The notes under the pieces: generated by a model | The model's database searches: none | What the model saw: only the letters and a program-made list of their open reading frames with translations | What the model was told of the DNA's origin: nothing | Source: Spirulina sp. | GTDB lineage: Bacteria > Cyanobacteriota > Cyanobacteriia > Phormidesmidales > Phormidesmidaceae | Length of the DNA: 64,000 bases | Reading direction: 5' to 3' | Assembly (NCBI GenBank): GCA_044070495.1 | Contig: JBIPSI010000003.1 | Span: 128,001-192,000 of the forward strand | Shown: positions 1 through 58,580 of the stretch, piece after piece | How positions within the stretch are numbered: position 1 is the first letter of the stretch | Layout: every line of letters begins with the position of its first letter | Made by a program: the position numbers and the translations under genes

Positions 1-132
1 ACAAAGGCTTTTCGCGTAAGGGTGATACTCGATCATTGCTTTATAGATTTCGAGTGCCCTGGCCTGCTCCGGGTTATCCAGGTTGAAGCGTAGAGTCTCT
101 TGATGGACATTGCCGCCATTACGAGGGGCCAT
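1..132 (-). CDS. Partial small protein directly downstream of ParM; candidate ParR/StbB-like DNA-binding adaptor
   Basis: ATG at 132, 8 nt after the ParM stop. Open to the window edge: MAPRNGGNVHQETLRFNLDNPEQARALEIYKAMIEYHPYAKSLC. Not in the ORF track. Confidence 0.55.
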   Translation of the reverse strand, partial: MAPRNGGNVHQETLRFNLDNPEQARALEIYKAMIEYHPYAKSLC

Positions 133-140
133 GGCACCCC

Positions 141-1205
141 CTAACCCATCTGGGCCATCAGGACAGCATTGATCAACTGTGGCTCAATTCCAGGAAGCCG
201 GACAACTTGAAACCTACCGCCCGTCGCCTTCTCCAGCGGAGCCAATAGGCCACTCGCCCCACCAACGATATAGACCATACCGAGCTGCCCCCAGACCGAG
301 GCCCAGTTATCCTGCGTGAGCTGGTGCAGCAGATCCCGATTCCACTGCCGTACCACCTCTTCAACCAGTCCCGTGAAGTCATGGGCTTCGCCCGATTGCT
401 CGTAGATGTAGCGCCGATCCTCCGGCGCATTGCCTCCCTGGACACGAATAATGTCCAAGATGCTGGCCCGGTCAGGCGTATGGCCCCGAACCCGGTGGGC
501 AAACCCAGACGCAATCGCCCCCGCTAGTTCCTTCATAGCGGGGGCGACAAAGGACACCTGCCCCGACTTTCCGGCACTGCGAATGATGGTGCCCGACTTA
601 GACCATACCGAGCAGGTCAGGTCGCCCGTCCCGGCATCGATCACCCCGGTCAGGGGATAGCCGCTCAGCGATTGGGGCACCTGTCCCGTTTCCATCGCCC
701 AACTCCACACCGGGTATCCCTCCGTAACCAGTTCCACACTGGCCGTTGGCTGAAAGCGCTCGAAGCCACGCTGAAACAGTCGGGCATGGAAATCGGCAAC
801 GGCGTTGCCAATTTGACTCGCCACCTCCTGCCACTGCACTTTGCTGGAGTCGGGCACCAGCAGACGAACCGTAACGGCCCCCGACCGCACCCCGGCCAGC
901 GCTAGTGCCGCCGCCACCGCAATCGGAGTGTGTTCTACCTTGCCTGCCTCAAATAGTGATCTCCCGCCCAAATCACGGGCCAAATTACCAAACGCATAGG
1001 TCTCTCCCTGGAGGGTCACTAAGACCGACTCTGCATCAGGTCGAGCATCAGCAACCTCTAGCTCACTCAGCCGTTTCACAGACGCGATAAAGGAGACCTG
1101 CCCACCAGCCGTCGCCATCTTGAAATAGCCATTGCCAGCATCAACGCAGACCACCTCCGGCAACCGTACATCGCACTTTCGCTTTGCCCCCGCACTTGCT
1201 ACCAC
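141..1205 (-). CDS. parM: ParM/StbA-family actin-like plasmid segregation ATPase
   Basis: Actin-fold motifs VDAGNGYFK (phosphate 1), TEG (connect), IDAGTGD (phosphate 2), VGGAS (adenosine). Probable GTG start at 1205 after GGAGG (track start 1220). Confidence 0.85.
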   Translation of the reverse strand: MVASAGAKRKCDVRLPEVVCVDAGNGYFKMATAGGQVSFIASVKRLSELEVADARPDAESVLVTLQGETYAFGNLARDLGGRSLFEAGKVEHTPIAVAAALALAGVRSGAVTVRLLVPDSSKVQWQEVASQIGNAVADFHARLFQRGFERFQPTASVELVTEGYPVWSWAMETGQVPQSLSGYPLTGVIDAGTGDLTCSVWSKSGTIIRSAGKSGQVSFVAPAMKELAGAIASGFAHRVRGHTPDRASILDIIRVQGGNAPEDRRYIYEQSGEAHDFTGLVEEVVRQWNRDLLHQLTQDNWASVWGQLGMVYIVGGASGLLAPLEKATGGRFQVVRLPGIEPQLINAVLMAQMG

Positions 1206-1500
1206 AATCCACCTCCCCATTCAGATTGAGTCAAATCTGAGGCAGTTCGCCTCAAGTGCGACTAAACTAACACGATTAAATATAGTTGTCACGCATCAGG
1301 AATACGAATAACTGATGGTGATGATGAATTTGCTGAATGCAGCACTGGAACGGCCTACTGAGCCGTAAACTGCTGACTCGATCCGAGGTAAATCCGACGC
1401 ATAAAGCCAATGATTCGCTCGAAGTTGATCAACTTTGAGGCAGGTTGACTCTGGCCACAGCAATTCCCTCTATCTGCCTGCAATCTGCCTCGCTGTAGAG

Positions 1501-2070
1501 TCACTTTGCCTCAGGATGCGGGGACTTACCGCTGAGAATCTTAAAGTTCGGGTCGCCTACCACCAGTCCACAGGTTGCCATCGCGGAGATGGCTTCTCTG
1601 GCCCAGTCGATTTGCTGGGAGGGGCGGAGGGTCAGTGGTTGCGCCAGACCGTACAGAATCTTTTTGACGTTGAGATCGCGACGGGGCTGAAGTCCTTGGA
1701 GGTCTGCGGTAGCCACAAACAGCACATCATAGGAGTACAGCCCGTCAGCATCAGGCCAGTGACTCGCTAGGGCAATCGTAATTTGGTGGGTATGCCGATT
1801 ACCCTGGTTTGCCATCCCATCTAAGTGATCAATCAGGACATGGCAATCGGGTGCAGTGCAGGCTCCTGTTCTGATCGGCATCCAGATGGCCGTCCCTACA
1901 TCCCTAGGGCAGTGTTCAGGATTGCGACGAACGGATAGCAAAAGACCTGCTCCAGGGACGTGGTGGGCGGTGATTAACTCGTAGGGTCGTCGAGAAACTT
2001 TACCCTCACGCCACCAGACCAGCGCGTTCAGCCACTCTGCGATCGCCGTTAGGATTCTGTTAAGACGCAT
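1501..2070 (-). CDS. Hypothetical protein (189 aa), element-borne orphan
   Basis: ATG-started ORF filling the gap, co-oriented with parM; no recognisable motif. Confidence 0.6.
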   Translation of the reverse strand: MRLNRILTAIAEWLNALVWWREGKVSRRPYELITAHHVPGAGLLLSVRRNPEHCPRDVGTAIWMPIRTGACTAPDCHVLIDHLDGMANQGNRHTHQITIALASHWPDADGLYSYDVLFVATADLQGLQPRRDLNVKKILYGLAQPLTLRPSQQIDWAREAISAMATCGLVVGDPNFKILSGKSPHPEAK

Positions 2071-2171
2071 GTATTGTTATCCCGGACTAGGGATACTGTA
2101 TTTTACAGGCGTACTTCGGGACGGAATTTATTGGAACCCTGGAGCCAGAGGCAAGGCAGCGAGGTAGCACG

Positions 2172-2531
2172 GTGGCAGATGAGCAGAGCCTACAAGAGCA
2201 GATCGAGGTCTTGCATCAAGAGATCATCGTTCTTCGAGATCGGTTGGAGGATCTGGAGCACGGCGTTAAGTCAATTCCGTTCATTATTCCAACTCGGAAA
2301 AGAACTAAGGTCTGGGCCTTTTTGGCTTCAGTGCTAACTACGGCGGCGCTGGTTTTTGCCCTTTCTCCGCACCAGATTCAGGTTGGGAACTGGAGGTATG
2401 ACTCACCGGGCATCAAGCTCGATGTAATCACCAGCGTGGCCGCACTGATCGGTGTATGGGCAACGATTCGGGAACACTTGAGGGATAAGCATGACTATCG
2501 AACCCACGGCGGCGGCTCCAAGCATGGCTGA
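2172..2531 (+). CDS. Small membrane protein with N-terminal coiled coil and two hydrophobic segments
   Basis: GAGG upstream of GTG; heptad LQEQIEVLHQEIIVLRDRLEDLE; hydrophobic VWAFLASVLTTAALVFAL and VITSVAALIGVWA. Confidence 0.7.
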   Translation: MADEQSLQEQIEVLHQEIIVLRDRLEDLEHGVKSIPFIIPTRKRTKVWAFLASVLTTAALVFALSPHQIQVGNWRYDSPGIKLDVITSVAALIGVWATIREHLRDKHDYRTHGGGSKHG

Positions 2532-4113
2532 GCTGTTAACCCTACTGGAGCAAACAGCGGGGCTGCGACTTTTTATCAAAAACACCGAGGGCCAAATTCT
2601 GTGGGCCAATACAGGCGCGGTCAGCGACCTAGATGACGGAAGCCATATCCATGGCCCAGCTAGCCTCGACAGTGCGCTGGCATCGGACATCGATCAGCGG
2701 GGGGATGAGTTAGCCCTTCAGCGTGGACACAGCCAGGGGATTGAACCGTTGGGTGATCGCTTTATCCAAATCTGGAAGACCCGGATCGAGCGAGAGGGAC
2801 AAACCTATATTTTGGGTGGCTACCTCGACTGCACCGAGCGGGTGCTGAGTGAAGAGCGAGAGCTACGCCGCCTGGAGTACGAAGCCACCCACGACAGTCT
2901 CACCGGGCTGTTGAACCGAGGCTCCTTTTACATGCTCCTAGAGTCGGCCTGCCAACAACGTCGTCCAAAGCTGGCGCTGCTCTATCTCGACCTGAATGGT
3001 TTTAAGCGAATCAACGATATCCAGGGCCACCTAGAGGGAGATCGGCTCCTGCGGGTCGTCGCGAACCACCTTACGGCCTCCGTTCGGAGCGGGGATGCCG
3101 TGGCTCGTATGGGCGGTGACGAATTTACCGTGCTGCTACCGGGAGCCTCATCGGTTGAAGCCATGGTTGTCGCGGATCGCATTAGTAAACTCATGCCGAA
3201 GGACGGTCTCACCACGGCGATGGGAATTGCGGCATGGGAGAAGGGCGATACCCCAGACGCCATTGTGGGGCGAGCTGACGAGCTAATGTTCCTCGCCAAG
3301 CGCGATGGGGTACCGTGCCGCACCTCAAGCACTTGTACAACATCCATTGACTTAGTACAGGCACTCGACCAAGCGCTGGAACAGGGTGAGATCGTTCCCT
3401 ACTTCCAGCCGATTGCGGCCAGCCGAAATCGCCGAATCATTGGCTATGAATTGCTAGCCCGCTGGGTGCGTCCTGGGGGGCAGGTGGTGTCCCCCGCTGA
3501 GTTTATGCCGATCCTGGCGGAGGCCCGCTGGATGTCGCGACTAGACTGGTTGATGTTGCGGGCCGGAATGAGGGCGCTGGAGCACTTTTCCGACCAGTGG
3601 CTCTCGATCAACATCTCTGAAGAAACGCTGTTCGATGCCGAGTTCAGTAATCGGCTGGCCAGGGAGCTAGAGTCCCACTTTGCCTCCACAGAATTTCTGC
3701 GCCTGGAAATCTCCGAGTCCATCGCAATTAGCGTGCAGCCCCTGCTCGAAGGGAGAGATGCGATTACTCAACTCAAAAACCTGGCCAGTGCCGATGTAGA
3801 CATTGGCCTCCTGGTGGATGATTATGGCAGCGCCTACGCTCACCTCCTGGCTATTATGCGCCTCTGTGAGGAAGTTCCCAACGTGCGGGCCATCAAGCTG
3901 GTGGGTGATCTGGTGCGAAACATTGACAACACCCCCGCCAAAATCACGATCTGCCGAAACGCGATTGAACTGGCCCACGGCCTGGGCCTGGAAACCATCG
4001 CCGAGGGCGTTGAGACAGAGGCGGAGCTAATGACCTTACGAGGGCTACACTGCGATTCCGTACAGGGATACTACTTGGGTGTCCCTCTCGCCATGGATGA
4101 ATACCTGCCCTGA
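2491..4113 (+). CDS. PAS-like + GGDEF + EAL diguanylate cyclase/phosphodiesterase
   Basis: HDSLTGLLNR, RSGD I-site, GGDEF; EAL domain FQPI, YELLARW, LEISE, DDYG, EGVET, QGYY. Confidence 0.93.
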   Translation: MTIEPTAAAPSMAELLTLLEQTAGLRLFIKNTEGQILWANTGAVSDLDDGSHIHGPASLDSALASDIDQRGDELALQRGHSQGIEPLGDRFIQIWKTRIEREGQTYILGGYLDCTERVLSEERELRRLEYEATHDSLTGLLNRGSFYMLLESACQQRRPKLALLYLDLNGFKRINDIQGHLEGDRLLRVVANHLTASVRSGDAVARMGGDEFTVLLPGASSVEAMVVADRISKLMPKDGLTTAMGIAAWEKGDTPDAIVGRADELMFLAKRDGVPCRTSSTCTTSIDLVQALDQALEQGEIVPYFQPIAASRNRRIIGYELLARWVRPGGQVVSPAEFMPILAEARWMSRLDWLMLRAGMRALEHFSDQWLSINISEETLFDAEFSNRLARELESHFASTEFLRLEISESIAISVQPLLEGRDAITQLKNLASADVDIGLLVDDYGSAYAHLLAIMRLCEEVPNVRAIKLVGDLVRNIDNTPAKITICRNAIELAHGLGLETIAEGVETEAELMTLRGLHCDSVQGYYLGVPLAMDEYLP

Positions 4114-4133
4114 CGACTTTTTCTGCGTATTCA

Positions 4134-4154
4134 TTTTGGGGGCAATTTGGGGAA
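4134..4154. other. Possible integrase arm-type binding sites (TTTGGGG direct repeat)
   Basis: TTTTGGGGGCAATTTGGGGAA about 55 bp inside the att site, a typical position for tyrosine-integrase arm sites. Confidence 0.35.
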
Positions 4155-4206
4155 CGATTCACACCAAGATCGCCAAAATCCTTTTATATCAATACTCTTA
4201 GTCAAG

Positions 4207-4259
4207 AAGGCAGCCGCCTTCTAAGCGGTCGGTCGCTGGTTCGATCCCAGCATGGCCCG
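4207..4259 (+). pseudogene. 3' fragment of tRNA-Arg(TCT) = attR attachment site
   Basis: Anticodon arm GCCGC-CTTCTAA-GCGGT, T arm GCTGG-TTCGATC-CCAGC, acceptor 3' strand ATGGCCC-G; no complementary 5' acceptor strand upstream. Confidence 0.88.
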
Positions 4260-4310
4260 TTACCAGCGTAACCCTTACGCAGAGACACTTTTAACTTAGA
4301 TCCCTGCTTT

Positions 4311-4358: not shown

Positions 4359-5000
4359 TCACCCAGAACCAGCGCGTTTAGACACGGCGGCGGAGTCCTC
4401 GACGTACCAGCGCCAGGGTAATTCCGTGCCCTGGGTGAGGCCGATGCGGGTGGTTTGGATGCGGTTGTCGGAAGGGGCGACTCTCTGCCGCCATTGGGGA
4501 GTGGGCGGGGCCAGCCATAGGCCGCTGTCGGGAATCAAGGGCTGCTCGGTGAGGCGACGGTCGATCTCTAAAAGCTGGCAGGTTTTGCCGGGGCCAGCCC
4601 CCCAGCGGGTGGGTGTTTCCTGGCGCTTGCCGGGACGCTTTTCTTGACGTTCCTGGACTAGCCAGGGGGGAACGGTCTCCAGTTCTACCGCTCGAATCAG
4701 TACCGCACTGGGGATACGGTCTTGGTCGGTGACCACGTTAAAGCAGTGGTAGATGCCGTAGATTAGGTACACATAGCTGTAGCCCGCGGGGCCGAACATC
4801 ACCCGATTGCGTGGGGTTTCGCGACGGTAGGCATGGCAAGCCGGGTCGCCCTCCGTGTAGGCCTCGGTTTCCACAATCACCGCCTCTAGGTGGCGGCCAT
4901 CGGGCCACCGCCGCACCAGCCGACAGCCCAACAAATCCGGGGCCACCTCCAACGCTGGCCGACTCAGCCAATCGGGAGCAATCACCCCATCGCCCTGCAT
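4359..5000 (-). CDS. mpg: DNA-3-methyladenine glycosylase (MPG family)
   Basis: IVETEAY, DPACHA, YVYLIYG, AVLIRA, GPGK, TRIG, PWRW motifs. Confidence 0.93.
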   Translation of the reverse strand: MQGDGVIAPDWLSRPALEVAPDLLGCRLVRRWPDGRHLEAVIVETEAYTEGDPACHAYRRETPRNRVMFGPAGYSYVYLIYGIYHCFNVVTDQDRIPSAVLIRAVELETVPPWLVQERQEKRPGKRQETPTRWGAGPGKTCQLLEIDRRLTEQPLIPDSGLWLAPPTPQWRQRVAPSDNRIQTTRIGLTQGTELPWRWYVEDSAAVSKRAGSG

Positions 5001-5008
5001 CGTGGTGC

Positions 5009-7081
5009 CTAGCCCTGGAACCATTCGTCCTGGGCTTCTTCCTTGGTGTTGGTGCGGCGGTCGGGGGTTTGCCGATCAAAGGTCATGTGGATGGAACGGT
5101 TTTGTTCGCCATCAGCCGCCACAGCCATGATCGGGTAGTCGATGGTGCCGTCTGGGAAGCTAGTGTGGAATCGGAAGGTGCCCTCAGGACTCAACTGAAT
5201 AGGCTGTCCGGCGATGGTGACGGTGGCGTCGGGTTCGGTAGCTCCGTAGACGATCAGCTCGGCATCGGCCACCAGCCAGAATTTGCGGGGCCGGGCCGGG
5301 GGCATGGAGGCCGAGAAACCCACCCCAGACATGGTGAGGCCCGAAATGCCGGACATCGTCAGGCCAGAGACAGTCATGCCTGACATCCCAACGCCCGACA
5401 TCCCCACCCCAGACATCGTCACGCCCATGCCGACCCCAGACATCATGCCCATCCCAGACATCGTGGGCACCGCGCCCCCTGGCCCCGGCATTCCCTGCAA
5501 TAGCCCCGCCCCGGAGGCTCCCCAGGCGTAGGAACTCTCGGCGGCTTGGTAGGGAGCCATCGATCCGGCCACATGCGGTATCGAACCTGGCACCTGCTGA
5601 ATCGATCCGGCCACATGGGACACAGAACCCGGTACGTGGGGCACTGATCCAGGGACGTGCTGCATGGATCCATAGAGGGAGCCATCGACACGATCCGCTT
5701 CTCCGGCCTGGGAAATGGCGTACATTTGCTCGTGCAGGCTACGGGATTTTTGGTTGGGATCCACCAAGGTCATCAGGGTTTTGCCCCGCAGGTCTGCCTC
5801 CCAGGTCACCGTTTTGAAGTGGTCTTCGCTCCAGTCGGAGGGGTAGATGGGGGGAATGCGGATAGTGTTGGATCGGGCCAGCAGCAGCCAGCGGCCATCC
5901 CCTGTGAGATAGCCAATTTCGGCCTGGTAATCGCGGTCGCTGACGGGAATTTGCAGGTACCAATCCCGCGCTAGTTCGTCACAGTCGCACTGCTGCATTC
6001 CGTGGGGAGCTTGGTAGGTGCGATCAATATCGGTAACATCGTAGAGTCGCAGGGCCAGCCGCTCGCCCCCCTGGCGACGCAGGTCTTCCTTGTGGGTGTG
6101 GGGGATATCCCAATAGACGTAGGCCCACTGGGGATCACGGGGCATCAGCACCATACGGCTCTCGCCATAGCCATCGGGCAAGGGTGGCAGGCCATCGTCA
6201 ATGCTGGAGAGGTCGATATCGCCATCGGTGGGTTGGCCCACCACATCAAATTTTCTGGCCTCAATGTCGGTCTGATCTTCGGTGCTAGCCATCGCTGCCG
6301 CTGCTCCTGCGGCCAATCCCACCATCCCCGTCGCCATCGCCATTACCGGAACGGCACTGGGCTGAGGAATGGGGGGCTCTTCTAGGGCTGTCGGTGGCTC
6401 AGGGGTTTCAATGGCAGGTGGGACTTCCTCGACCACAACAGGTTCCTGTATTTCAGAAACCACGGGTTCAGGAATATCAGTCGCACCAGGTTCAGGAATC
6501 TCAGAAATCACAGGTTCAGGAATATCCGAGACCACGGACTCAGCCACCGCAGGGGCCGAATCCAGCCAGGGATCGGTTTCTAACGGTGAGGCGGAGATAG
6601 ATTCTGCGGCTACCGGCGGCGGCGTTACCGCTGAAGGCTCGGTGACTACGGGGTTTGGGGTGGCATTTGCCAGCGAGGAAGGGGATGCGGTTTGGGGTGC
6701 CTCAGGGGCGGGCGCGGGGGGAGCCGCCGCTAATTCCTCTGGAGCCGAAACCTCTGATGCCGTAGATGATGCCGTGGATCCTCGGCGGCTAGCGGCCCAG
6801 CCCAGGGCACCTACCCCAGCGGCAATGGGCAACAGCCACCACCAGGCAAATCCGCCACCTTGGGCGGCAGGCGGGGCGGTGGGGGGAGTCGTCTGCTGCG
6901 CTAGGAGGACTTCCTCGGCAGGCTGGGAAGCAGGAGCCGCTGGCACGTCGTCGGGCACCGGAAACGTCGTTGATGTTTGGGCCACTGGGGCAGACAACGG
7001 CAAGGCTAGAGCCTTCAAGCCAGTTTGCGCCGTACCGAGGAGCAACAGCGCAGCAACGAGGGTTCTGGAGAAATACGGCAT
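5009..7081 (-). CDS. DUF4912-domain protein with signal peptide, TM segment and acidic Pro-rich linker
   Basis: GYGESR(M)VLMPRDPQWAYVYWD, CDELARDWY, RKFWLVADAELIVYGATEPDA; MSG repeats. Confidence 0.88.
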   Translation of the reverse strand: MPYFSRTLVAALLLLGTAQTGLKALALPLSAPVAQTSTTFPVPDDVPAAPASQPAEEVLLAQQTTPPTAPPAAQGGGFAWWWLLPIAAGVGALGWAASRRGSTASSTASEVSAPEELAAAPPAPAPEAPQTASPSSLANATPNPVVTEPSAVTPPPVAAESISASPLETDPWLDSAPAVAESVVSDIPEPVISEIPEPGATDIPEPVVSEIQEPVVVEEVPPAIETPEPPTALEEPPIPQPSAVPVMAMATGMVGLAAGAAAAMASTEDQTDIEARKFDVVGQPTDGDIDLSSIDDGLPPLPDGYGESRMVLMPRDPQWAYVYWDIPHTHKEDLRRQGGERLALRLYDVTDIDRTYQAPHGMQQCDCDELARDWYLQIPVSDRDYQAEIGYLTGDGRWLLLARSNTIRIPPIYPSDWSEDHFKTVTWEADLRGKTLMTLVDPNQKSRSLHEQMYAISQAGEADRVDGSLYGSMQHVPGSVPHVPGSVSHVAGSIQQVPGSIPHVAGSMAPYQAAESSYAWGASGAGLLQGMPGPGGAVPTMSGMGMMSGVGMGVTMSGVGMSGVGMSGMTVSGLTMSGISGLTMSGVGFSASMPPARPRKFWLVADAELIVYGATEPDATVTIAGQPIQLSPEGTFRFHTSFPDGTIDYPIMAVAADGEQNRSIHMTFDRQTPDRRTNTKEEAQDEWFQG

Positions 7082-8012: not shown

Positions 8013-9422
8013 ATGGCTGCATCCGCAATTCGTCCGGCCCGCATTTCCCGCGTATTGCCCGGCTCCATTGCCGAGGAGGTGGGGTTTGAACCCGGTGATG
8101 CCCTCGTTTCCATTAACGATCAGTGCCCCAGGGACTTGATCGATTACCAGTTCCTCTGCGCCGAGGAGGAACTGACCCTAGAGGTGCTAGATCGCGAGGG
8201 CAAAACCCATCGGGTGGAACTGGAAAAAGACATTGATGCCGACCTAGGGCTGGAGTTTGAAACCGCCCTGTTCGACGGGCTAATCCAGTGCAACAATGCC
8301 TGTCCCTTCTGCTTTATCGATCAACAGCCCCCCGGCAAGCGCGACACCCTCTATCTAAAAGACGACGACTACCGCCTCAGCTTCCTCTACGGCAGCTACC
8401 TCACCCTCACCAACCTGCTGCCCCAGGAATGGGAACGCATCGCCCAACTGCGTCTGTCGCCCCTGTATGTGTCGGTTCATGCCACCGAGCCGGAGGTGCG
8501 ATCCCGCCTGCTGAAGAACCCTAGGGCAGGGCAAATCCTAGAGCAACTGGCCTGGTTCCAAGCCCAGCGGCTGCAAATCCATGCCCAGGTGGTGGTCTGC
8601 CCCGGCATCAACGATGGCGCACACCTAGAAACCACCCTGCGGGATCTGGCTCGTTTCCACCAGGGCGAAGTGCCCGCCGTGACCTCCGTGGCGGTGGTGC
8701 CCGTGGGGCTAACCCGGTTCCGCCCCGCCGAAGATGAACTCACCCCGGTAACCGCCGACCAAGCGGCCACGGTGATCGCCCAGGTGGAGGCGCTTCAGGT
8801 GGAGTTTCAGCCCCAGTTTGGCACCCGCTTTGCTTGGCTGGCCGATGAATGGTACCTGCTGGCCAACCGGGAGGTGCCCAGCTCCGACGACTACGAAGAC
8901 TATCCCCAACTCGGCAACGGCGTAGGGTCGATTCGCCAATTCCTCGACCAGTTTGCCCAGTCGGCCAGCGACTATTTACCCGATGCCGTCCACCCACCGC
9001 GCACCCTCACCTGGGTGGTGGGCAATGCCGTAGAACATGCCTTCCAGCCCATTGTGGATCGGCTCAATCAGGTGGAAGACCTCACCGTGCAACTGGCGGC
9101 CCTCGCCAGCGACTATTGGGGCCGAGACTTAACCGTAACGGGCCTGCTCACCGGACAAGACCTGCTCAGCGGGCTGGAGGGCAAACCCCTGGGGGATGCG
9201 GTGCTGCTGCCCACGGTGATGCTCAAACCCAGCGACAGTGGCCAACCCGAAGACACCCTCTTCCTCGATGACATGAGCGTGGCAGAGGTGAGCCAGCGCC
9301 TCAATGTGCCGATTCTACCCATCGACGATACCGACGCCCTGGTGAAGAGTTGCTGCGGCGTCGTGCCGAAGGCCTCCTACACCGATCTCCAGCCTGCGGT
9401 GGGCTATTGGGCACCGTCTTAG
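8013..9422 (+). CDS. TIGR03279-family radical SAM protein (PDZ + DUF512)
   Basis: CNNACPFCFIDQ, KDDDYRLSFLYGSYLTLTN, N-terminal PDZ-like segment. Confidence 0.93.
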   Translation: MAASAIRPARISRVLPGSIAEEVGFEPGDALVSINDQCPRDLIDYQFLCAEEELTLEVLDREGKTHRVELEKDIDADLGLEFETALFDGLIQCNNACPFCFIDQQPPGKRDTLYLKDDDYRLSFLYGSYLTLTNLLPQEWERIAQLRLSPLYVSVHATEPEVRSRLLKNPRAGQILEQLAWFQAQRLQIHAQVVVCPGINDGAHLETTLRDLARFHQGEVPAVTSVAVVPVGLTRFRPAEDELTPVTADQAATVIAQVEALQVEFQPQFGTRFAWLADEWYLLANREVPSSDDYEDYPQLGNGVGSIRQFLDQFAQSASDYLPDAVHPPRTLTWVVGNAVEHAFQPIVDRLNQVEDLTVQLAALASDYWGRDLTVTGLLTGQDLLSGLEGKPLGDAVLLPTVMLKPSDSGQPEDTLFLDDMSVAEVSQRLNVPILPIDDTDALVKSCCGVVPKASYTDLQPAVGYWAPS

Positions 9423-58231: not shown

Positions 58232-58580
58232 TCAGCTAGTTTGGCGGCTTCTATGTCACTGTTACATTCCAAAGCGCCATCATTCAGATTATCACTAGAG
58301 TGCAACGCCCCACGATGATTCTACGGACTTTGTGGAGCGGATCGACCAAATCCTTCTGTCAACTGGGTTACGGTCTAATTCAGTAGAGAGCGTTGCTAGA
58401 CGTTCACTGGATTGTCCAGAAAGCTAGCGTTGAGCCAAGGCTTACCGTTTCTTCCTACCTCTTGGCCGAGGATCGATTTCCGACTCAACCTGGCCTGCTC
58501 ACCCCCAGTATCAGCGGGCGAGGAGACCTCTCCCCTACGGATTGTCGGGCTGGGAAGCGAGGTTTTCCAATTCAGACTTT

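Follow-up and report, generated by a model that had tools for sequence, protein, structure and literature searches.

A ParM-type actin and a candidate partition module in the right arm of a tRNA-Arg-integrated prophage of Spirulina sp.

The window examined in this study is a 64,000-nucleotide stretch of the genome of the filamentous cyanobacterium Spirulina sp. (C3:128001-192000, C3 being one of the 74 contigs of a 5.31 Mb assembly designated G000). Its first part (positions 1-4260) is, as the sequence shows, the right arm of a prophage and carries a ParMRC-like module. We propose that this module acts on excised phage DNA in the manner of the AlpAC system, and we consider the chances of this proposal to be about even. 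A transient role after induction appears more likely than a stable plasmid-like lysogeny. After excision, a ParR-like adaptor would bind TGAGGCA repeats on the circular phage DNA, and ParM filaments would move or position the repeat-bound DNA, probably towards a membrane complex that holds an ATPase encoded in the same operon. Such positioning would support the replication or distribution of phage genomes, as AlpA and AlpC do for the prophage CGP3.

As described in two reports, CGP3, an integrated prophage of Corynebacterium glutamicum, encodes the actin-like protein AlpC and a co-transcribed adaptor, AlpA, which attaches to sites preceding the operon and thereby connects circular phage DNA with the filaments (PMC4446434, PMC5539076). 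Efficient replication of the phage is reported to require both proteins (PMC4446434). The Spirulina element, too, is a prophage in the integrated state; it encodes an actin-like protein and a putative adaptor, with candidate sites upstream. The host belongs to a different phylum, however, and the operon extends further, to genes for two membrane proteins and an ATPase resembling FtsK.

The prophage and its attachment site in tRNA-Arg(TCT)

The right border of the element and the adjoining host gene are as follows.

Positions 4214-4260, plus strand: core of the right attachment site (attR), an exact 47-nucleotide copy of the 3' part of tRNA-Arg(TCT); Rfam tRNA match at 4198-4252
Positions 4359-5024, minus strand: host flank outside the element, methylpurine-DNA glycosylase gene (mpg; Pfam 1.4e-57), found in 24 of the 24 genus genomes searched

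Positions 4198-4252 of the plus strand match the Rfam tRNA model over model positions 7-64 of 71 (33.5 bits against a gathering threshold of 29; E = 4.8e-4), and ARAGORN returned zero tRNAs over the 64 kb window. A BLAST search of the whole assembly showed that positions 4214-4260 (C3:132214-132260) are 100% identical over 47 nucleotides to C3:39579-39625 and revealed no third copy; an exact repeat of this length is far beyond what chance would be expected to give in 5.3 Mb. The second copy is the 3' part, plus one base, of an intact tRNA-Arg(TCT) (C3:39552-39624, plus strand), which is the sole copy in the genome and is situated 92.6 kb upstream, likewise on the plus strand of C3. A reading made earlier from the sequence of the window alone (hereafter the sequence-only reading) had placed an orphan tRNA-Arg(TCT) 3' fragment at 4207-4259. 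The fragment is real, with the exact repeat shifted by a few bases to 4214-4260. That reading had also taken the fragment for an attachment site and predicted an intact tRNA-Arg(TCT) and an integrase upstream; because both lie there, this interpretation holds, as does its view that only the right end of the element is visible, the window contributing the right arm at 1-4260.

The integrase open reading frame (ORF; C3:39754-40878) is the first ORF after the tRNA and starts 129 nucleotides downstream of it. It had zero matches in local Pfam, PHROGs, NCBIfam and PDB sequences and was identified via its homologues only, 84 proteins including XisA of Anabaena and "site-specific integrase" proteins, several with PF00589. 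An alignment of 15 sequences shows no variation at residues R228, K249, R308, H309, H332 and Y341. XisA excises the nifD element. The prophage integrase aligns with XisA over its full length and has the same invariant R, K, R-H, H and Y, but it is only 27-28% identical to XisA and serves a phage at a tRNA gene. A second XisA-family paralogue, 30% identical to the prophage integrase, is encoded elsewhere in the genome (G000:C47:16109-17230).

Judged by its borders and gene content, the DNA between the repeats (C3:39579-132260, 92.6 kb) is a temperate myovirus-like prophage in the 3' end of tRNA-Arg(TCT), inserted by the XisA-family tyrosine integrase. We called 104 ORFs between C3:30000 and C3:140000, of which 97 were scanned with Pfam, 66 with PHROGs and 14 with NCBIfam. 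Pfam and PHROGs matches identify an early region with Gp3-like, Dam-like methylase, ParB-like, RadC and DUF3560/primase-like proteins, and head genes for a Mu F-like protein and a major head protein. The tail genes encode neck, sheath, tube, tape measure, gpU, X and a tail protein of PHROG 52, and are accompanied by baseplate V, J and I genes, four large fibre proteins and, for lysis, a membrane-anchored NlpC/P60 hydrolase. The sheath protein has 36-37% identity to those of BcepMu-like and P2-like phages, and the terminase-like protein had zero matches among cultured phages. An IMG/VR contig is colinear with the prophage from the tape measure gene to a gene for a 189-amino-acid protein upstream of ParM. 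Provirus G189 was rejected as a relative, since it has no ParM and resembles the element only in the integrase (79%) and the small gene that follows it.

The sequence-only reading had offered a phage-plasmid or an integrative and conjugative element as the nature of the element. The latter is not borne out: the 97 ORFs scanned with Pfam matched no family of relaxases or type IV secretion proteins, and virion genes are present instead. The suggestion that the element both integrates and persists as an actively segregated episome stands as far as integration is concerned, given the 47-nucleotide repeat and the integrase, whereas the episome was not shown: no plasmid replication initiator was recognised among the ORFs scanned with Pfam (97), PHROGs (66) and NCBIfam (14), many of which match no family, and no element DNA was found on other contigs, both junctions being assembled as integrated. 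The assembly holds the integrated form only, and a minority circle would be invisible in an assembly; the sequencing runs listed are two bioreactor DNA metagenomes only, which contain a 0.07 share of the sequence words, and none of RNA.

The host borders were compared in the genus after mpg and DUF7469, the gene at the left border, had been located in 40 relatives. DUF7469, like mpg, is present in 24 of the 24 genus genomes searched, and tRNA-Arg(TCT) adjoins it in seven of seven relatives, as in G000. In the 16 loci compared for an empty site, each of the nearest species has its own DNA past the 3' end of the tRNA and mpg is never there, so that the arrangement predicted for relatives, an intact tRNA next to mpg, was not seen; with synteny as scrambled as it is in the genus, this result carries little weight. 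In the relatives G019 and G005, the DNA beyond mpg matches contig C14 of G000. The two bases after the tRNA are TT in seven of seven relatives and in attR and are TA in the left attachment site (attL), a one-base hint that the attR flank may be the native one. A more distant genus genome (locus L025, G014:C173) has the order tRNA-Arg(TCT), DUF7469, mpg, with mpg on the side of DUF7469 away from the tRNA.

Four repeat copies of about 80-89 nucleotides, 91-95% alike (L001:12498-12586, L002:3901-3979, L002:6814-6902 and L002:8664-8746), sit at or near gene borders of the early region and may be regulatory. A 398-amino-acid protein (C3:123765-125158) combines a Gly/Ala-rich membrane segment with the NlpC/P60 domain and a C-terminal motif that, judged by eye, resembles transglycosylases; it is preceded by a 71-amino-acid membrane protein. 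The pair may be a signal-anchored endolysin and its holin, or else a wall-opening enzyme of the cassette described below.

The ParM-type actin, its putative adaptor and the upstream repeats

The module at the left edge of the window comprises the following features.

Positions 141-1220, minus strand: ParM-type actin-like ATPase of 359 amino acids (ALP_N, PHROG 691, fold and motifs)
Positions 1-132 (C3:127761-128132), minus strand: ParR-like adaptor gene for 123 amino acids, with its first 44 codons in the window, starting 8 nucleotides past the ParM stop
Positions 1238-1254, unstranded: proximal palindrome TGAGGCA-N3-(T/C)GCCTCA, candidate ParR operator or centromere, conserved in five orthologous loci
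Positions 1255-1292, minus strand: conserved upstream block GTGACA...TTAATCGTG.TAGTTT, promoter-like candidate (invariant columns in alignment A5 of the five loci)
Positions 1436-1492, unstranded: distal half-site cluster, candidate parC-like repeats (1436-1442, a degenerate copy at 1476-1482, and 1486-1492)

The product of 141-1220 is a ParM-type actin by its predicted fold. It matches PHROG 691, "partition protein" (E = 2.2e-9), and weakly Pfam ALP_N (E = 1.1e-4; 22.9 bits, below the cut-off of 26.3). Its AlphaFold model (predicted local distance difference test, pLDDT, 87.2) was compared with known structures by Foldseek. The top matches were 8x1i (3.6e-16), 6izr, 9rmi (CorM), 2fsj, 5ec0 and 1mwk (4.7e-14), with 4a61 at 1.0e-13. 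The ParM-type structures (Dh-cParM1, pCBH ParM, CorM, Ta0583, Alp7A and R1 ParM) all outrank MreB and Hsp70, in agreement with the ParM-like ATPase assigned by the sequence-only reading. The motifs DxGNGxxK, DxGxGxxT and VGGA are invariant in nine family members, as are residues D27, G29, G31, K34, E167, D195, G197, G199, T202, G320 and G321, which presumably correspond to the phosphate and adenosine motifs of the actin fold.

The family is rare. A word search yielded nine clusters, and among 1.84 billion proteins there were 197 representative homologues at E <= 0.001 and 21 at E <= 1e-30. Close orthologues occur in four of 173 genomes of the bacterial family, G000 included; as they were found in three of the other 172, the block is not common to relatives, in line with the sequence-only reading. 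There were zero matches among cultured phages. The nearest annotated relatives are ParM/StbA proteins on eight cyanobacterial plasmids (25-28% identity). Those of pNPUN05 (Nostoc punctiforme) and pMIC7113.06 (Allocoleopsis) align over 90-94% and are followed by an ORF of about 90 amino acids, but they lie on plasmids and have no FtsK-like ATPase annotated in the 2.5 kb downstream. The ParMRC system of plasmid R1 is similar in its actin fold (1mwk and 4a61, above), in the order of parM followed by a small adaptor gene, and in having repeats upstream. It differs in that the prophage ParM is 13-19% identical to R1 and other type II proteins in structure alignments, the adaptor has no detectable likeness to other ParR candidates, and the module here lies in an integrated prophage with an extended operon.

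ParM-derived actins with a downstream adaptor also occur in the same phylum, as CorMR/FcmBC of filamentous cyanobacteria, and CorM is the best match of the prophage ParM among PDB sequences. In the available portions of the CorMR preprint and the FcmBC paper, these systems are chromosomal, vertically inherited and shape cells, and phages are not mentioned (bioRxiv 10.1101/2025.06.27.661541; PMC12645912). The prophage ParM, in contrast, has a patchy distribution and belongs to a prophage, and we rejected it as an FcmB/CorM orthologue, its score with the NCBIfam FcmB model being 21.3 bits against a cut-off of 300. FcmB passes the cut-off in 16 of 53 genus genomes and was not found in G000, G019 and G005, the latter two being the closest relatives.

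In four orthologues, the ParR-like protein has three parts: its N-terminal part and a C-terminal GGxIEVDLSxL are conserved, and the Pro-rich linker that joins them varies. This architecture and the position of the gene fit the layout expected of a ParR adaptor. Complex prediction for ParM and the ParR-like protein gave a score of 0.57 (weak band), against 0.00 for the best of three controls; the runs share at least 47% of contacts, and the pLDDT of the partner is at least 61. The mark used is reached by 116 of 157 solved complexes and by two of 215 mismatched pairs, and scores up to 0.60 include only 18 of the 157 solved complexes and both passing mismatches. Because ParM-ParR peptide complexes have already been solved, the score may show likeness only.

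The proximal palindrome sits just upstream of the ParM start. In G044, the fifth and most diverged locus, it reads TGACTC...GAGTCA, both arms having changed in a compensatory way. The half-site GAGGCA/TGCCTC occurs three times in the 280 nucleotides upstream of parM, against 0.11 expected from the genome, and is enriched upstream, at a spacing of 10 nucleotides, in four of the five orthologous loci, G000 included. These TGAGGCA repeats are a candidate centromere or operator. A simple sigma-70 scan upstream of parM flagged nothing.

The five-gene cassette and its possible roles

The ParR-like gene is followed, on the same strand and with gaps of at most 9 nucleotides, by three further genes for proteins of 111, 260 and 418 amino acids. 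The 111-amino-acid protein has hydrophobic segments, the 260-amino-acid protein has an N-terminal hydrophobic segment, and the 418-amino-acid protein contains a P-loop.

C3:125375-126631, minus strand: FtsK/TcpA-like ATPase of 418 amino acids (structural model matches)

The model of the ATPase (pLDDT 78.3) has long N-terminal helices, and its motor domain (residues 106-354) matches TcpA best (Z 17.3; root-mean-square deviation 3.1 Å over 209 residues), followed by FtsK (Z 16-16.6), with HerA, EssC and VirB4 close to the FtsK scores (Z 13-15). The protein thus resembles the FtsK/SpoIIIE-TcpA translocases in its N-terminal membrane helices and best-matching motor domain, but has no match to Pfam FtsK_SpoIIIE.

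The order 189-amino-acid gene, ParM, ParR, two small proteins, ATPase and fibres is kept in the IMG/VR contig. In another genus, ParM is accompanied by a same-strand Pfam FtsK_SpoIIIE gene, 2-5 kb away, in three of the five genomes examined. Three small ORFs separate the two genes in G089 (L060:8345-12608) and G079 (L061:94-3844), where the cassette consists of a 336-amino-acid ParM, ORFs of 89 and 164 amino acids, a 179-amino-acid membrane protein and a 553-amino-acid FtsK_SpoIIIE protein, with GATGTAA repeats upstream of ParM; in G072 (L043:13983 to L044), the intervening genes are a serine recombinase and two small ORFs. Comparison of the 418-amino-acid ATPase with the true FtsK-family neighbour of a related ParM was not significant (hhalign probability 0.5%). 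The ParM gene of G021 precedes four small ORFs and the gene for a 579-amino-acid protein that resembles the 418-amino-acid family around the P-loop (hhalign 81%), and the locus adjoins polymerase A and primase-helicase genes. ParM and ParR head a conserved five-gene cassette ending in an FtsK/TcpA-like ATPase, a new cassette with an inferred function that is also present in other cyanobacterial elements, not all of them phages. Among the literature matches listed, neither a ParM of a cyanobacterial prophage nor a ParM-FtsK cassette is described.

Several points weigh against an AlpAC-like function on excised phage DNA. The ParR-like profile found nothing below E = 1 among PDB sequences, and the protein gave hhalign values of 1.5% and 1.0% with ORFs downstream of plasmid ParM genes. 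The half-sites of G000 comprise only two exact and two to three degenerate copies, and conservation of the promoter palindrome would also be expected if the operon only regulated itself and the palindrome did not serve as a centromere. The distant ParM-ATPase loci are not prophages; those of the other genus belong to chromosomal islands whose neighbouring genes include transposases, a serine recombinase or genes of defence-like type. That the cassette is not confined to phages suggests a role general to mobile DNA, not one specific to phage or lytic replication. A rival reading is a dual lifestyle, in which the integrated state alternates with a low-copy plasmid-like episome segregated by ParM, ParR and the repeats. 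A ParMRC-like set with upstream repeats is the equipment of low-copy plasmids, plasmid ParM/StbA genes are the nearest named relatives, the prophage also encodes a ParB-like protein, and the more distant ParM of G021 has a module of DNA polymerase A and primase-helicase next to it. We nevertheless regard this lifestyle as rather unlikely: both junctions are assembled as integrated and element DNA is missing from other contigs, the 97 ORFs include no recognised replication initiator, and an integrated prophage whose actin-like system acts only after induction is already known (PMC4446434).

It is quite unlikely that the cassette is cargo directed at the host, either a cell-shape system like CorMR/FcmBC or a defence or exclusion system built on an FtsK/HerA-like ATPase, located near the attachment site. 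CorM is the best PDB sequence match of ParM (E = 0.014) and FcmB its best NCBIfam match (E = 1e-4), and G000 has no FcmB gene of its own; but the FcmB score falls far short of the cut-off, and the gene is also missing from the two closest relatives, which have no prophage ParM, so that its absence is a lineage trait. The cassette adjoins a GGDEF-EAL cargo gene, its relatives lie among transposases and defence-like genes, and the defence-type HerA/FtsK-like ATPases are among the fold matches (Z 13-15), together with a weak PADLOC match to mad8 (5.4e-6). Against a host-directed role, the repeats co-vary with the adaptor, as expected of a DNA-bound adaptor, and the cassette is syntenic within the phage lineage. 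The ATPase also raises the question of transfer between cells. TraB and Spd proteins of Streptomyces move double-stranded DNA into neighbouring cells, and ParM might similarly hand repeat-tagged double-stranded DNA to a septal FtsK/TcpA-like pump for delivery to the neighbouring cell of the filament, assisted by the membrane proteins and the NlpC/P60-transglycosylase protein. The N-terminal helices and a motor domain closest to TcpA and FtsK would suit such a pump, as would the ParM-ATPase link in three of five other-genus genomes, where the ATPase is a true Pfam FtsK_SpoIIIE protein, and the wall hydrolase encoded downstream in the same orientation. However, the virion gene set of the element is full, the hydrolase and the 71-amino-acid membrane protein can be interpreted as an endolysin with its holin, neither a transfer origin nor a relaxase is known for the element, and the Z scores of FtsK, HerA, EssC and VirB4 are close to one another. 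We consider this transfer very unlikely, and a long shot, too, the wider idea that the five genes form a machine of cyanobacterial mobile elements in which a filament passes DNA to a membrane pump, by which an excised prophage could travel along the trichome without virions in the manner of TraB-driven spreading.

Cargo genes and implications

Upstream of ParM, the right arm contains three further genes.

Positions 1501-2070, minus strand: 189-amino-acid protein, function unassigned; orthologues (51-58% identity) adjoin ParM in L038, L040 and L047
Positions 2172-2531, plus strand: 119-amino-acid protein, function unassigned, that begins with a coiled coil and has hydrophobic segments; conserved in L038 and L040, sub-threshold Pfam matches only
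Positions 2491-4113, plus strand: GGDEF-EAL protein of cyclic di-GMP turnover (EAL 8.9e-52, GGDEF 4.9e-33)

The 189-amino-acid protein had no match in Pfam, PHROGs, NCBIfam or PADLOC, and the Protein Atlas gave none that was usable. The GGDEF-EAL gene is the last one before attR; its product keeps the GGDEF motif intact and has ELL in place of EAL, and partial homologues adjoin ParM in L039 and L040. It is likely to be lysogenic-conversion cargo acting on cyclic di-GMP.

A class 1 DISARM (defence island system associated with restriction-modification) is complete in one cluster inside the prophage (C3:85841-99405), with PADLOC matches to DrmC (1.7e-100), DrmB (1.1e-86), DrmA (3.2e-304), DrmMI (E = 0) and DrmD (E = 0). 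The block that bears it (C3:79701-105400, 25.7 kb) has a G+C content of 50.3%, against 57-59% in the remaining prophage, and is inserted between the tail tube and chaperone genes and the tape measure gene, with no direct repeats found at its borders. It also encodes EVE-domain, LexA-like, NERD-UvrD helicase, WD40 and pentapeptide proteins. Two short interspersed repeat families lie at its right border (C3:105150-105340). Elsewhere in the window, one copy of a repeat resembling miniature inverted-repeat transposable elements, about 100 nucleotides long and present in many copies in the genome and its relatives, is found at 58483-58579, and a Twister-P5 match at 8509-8567 was taken as chance (22.8 bits against a gathering threshold of 37.6).

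To our knowledge, few temperate phages of filamentous cyanobacteria have been characterised. The prophage described here is complete-looking, has defined attachment sites and carries DISARM and a cyclic di-GMP enzyme. Actin-like systems in integrated prophages are known to us mainly from CGP3, and a second, unrelated system of this kind in another phylum would show that phages have recruited ParMRC repeatedly. The link between ParM and an FtsK-like ATPase provides a concrete, testable cassette with which to study the positioning, maintenance or movement of mobile DNA in polyploid multicellular bacteria. A cell-to-cell machine, if true, would be the cyanobacterial counterpart of TraB-driven spreading in Streptomyces.

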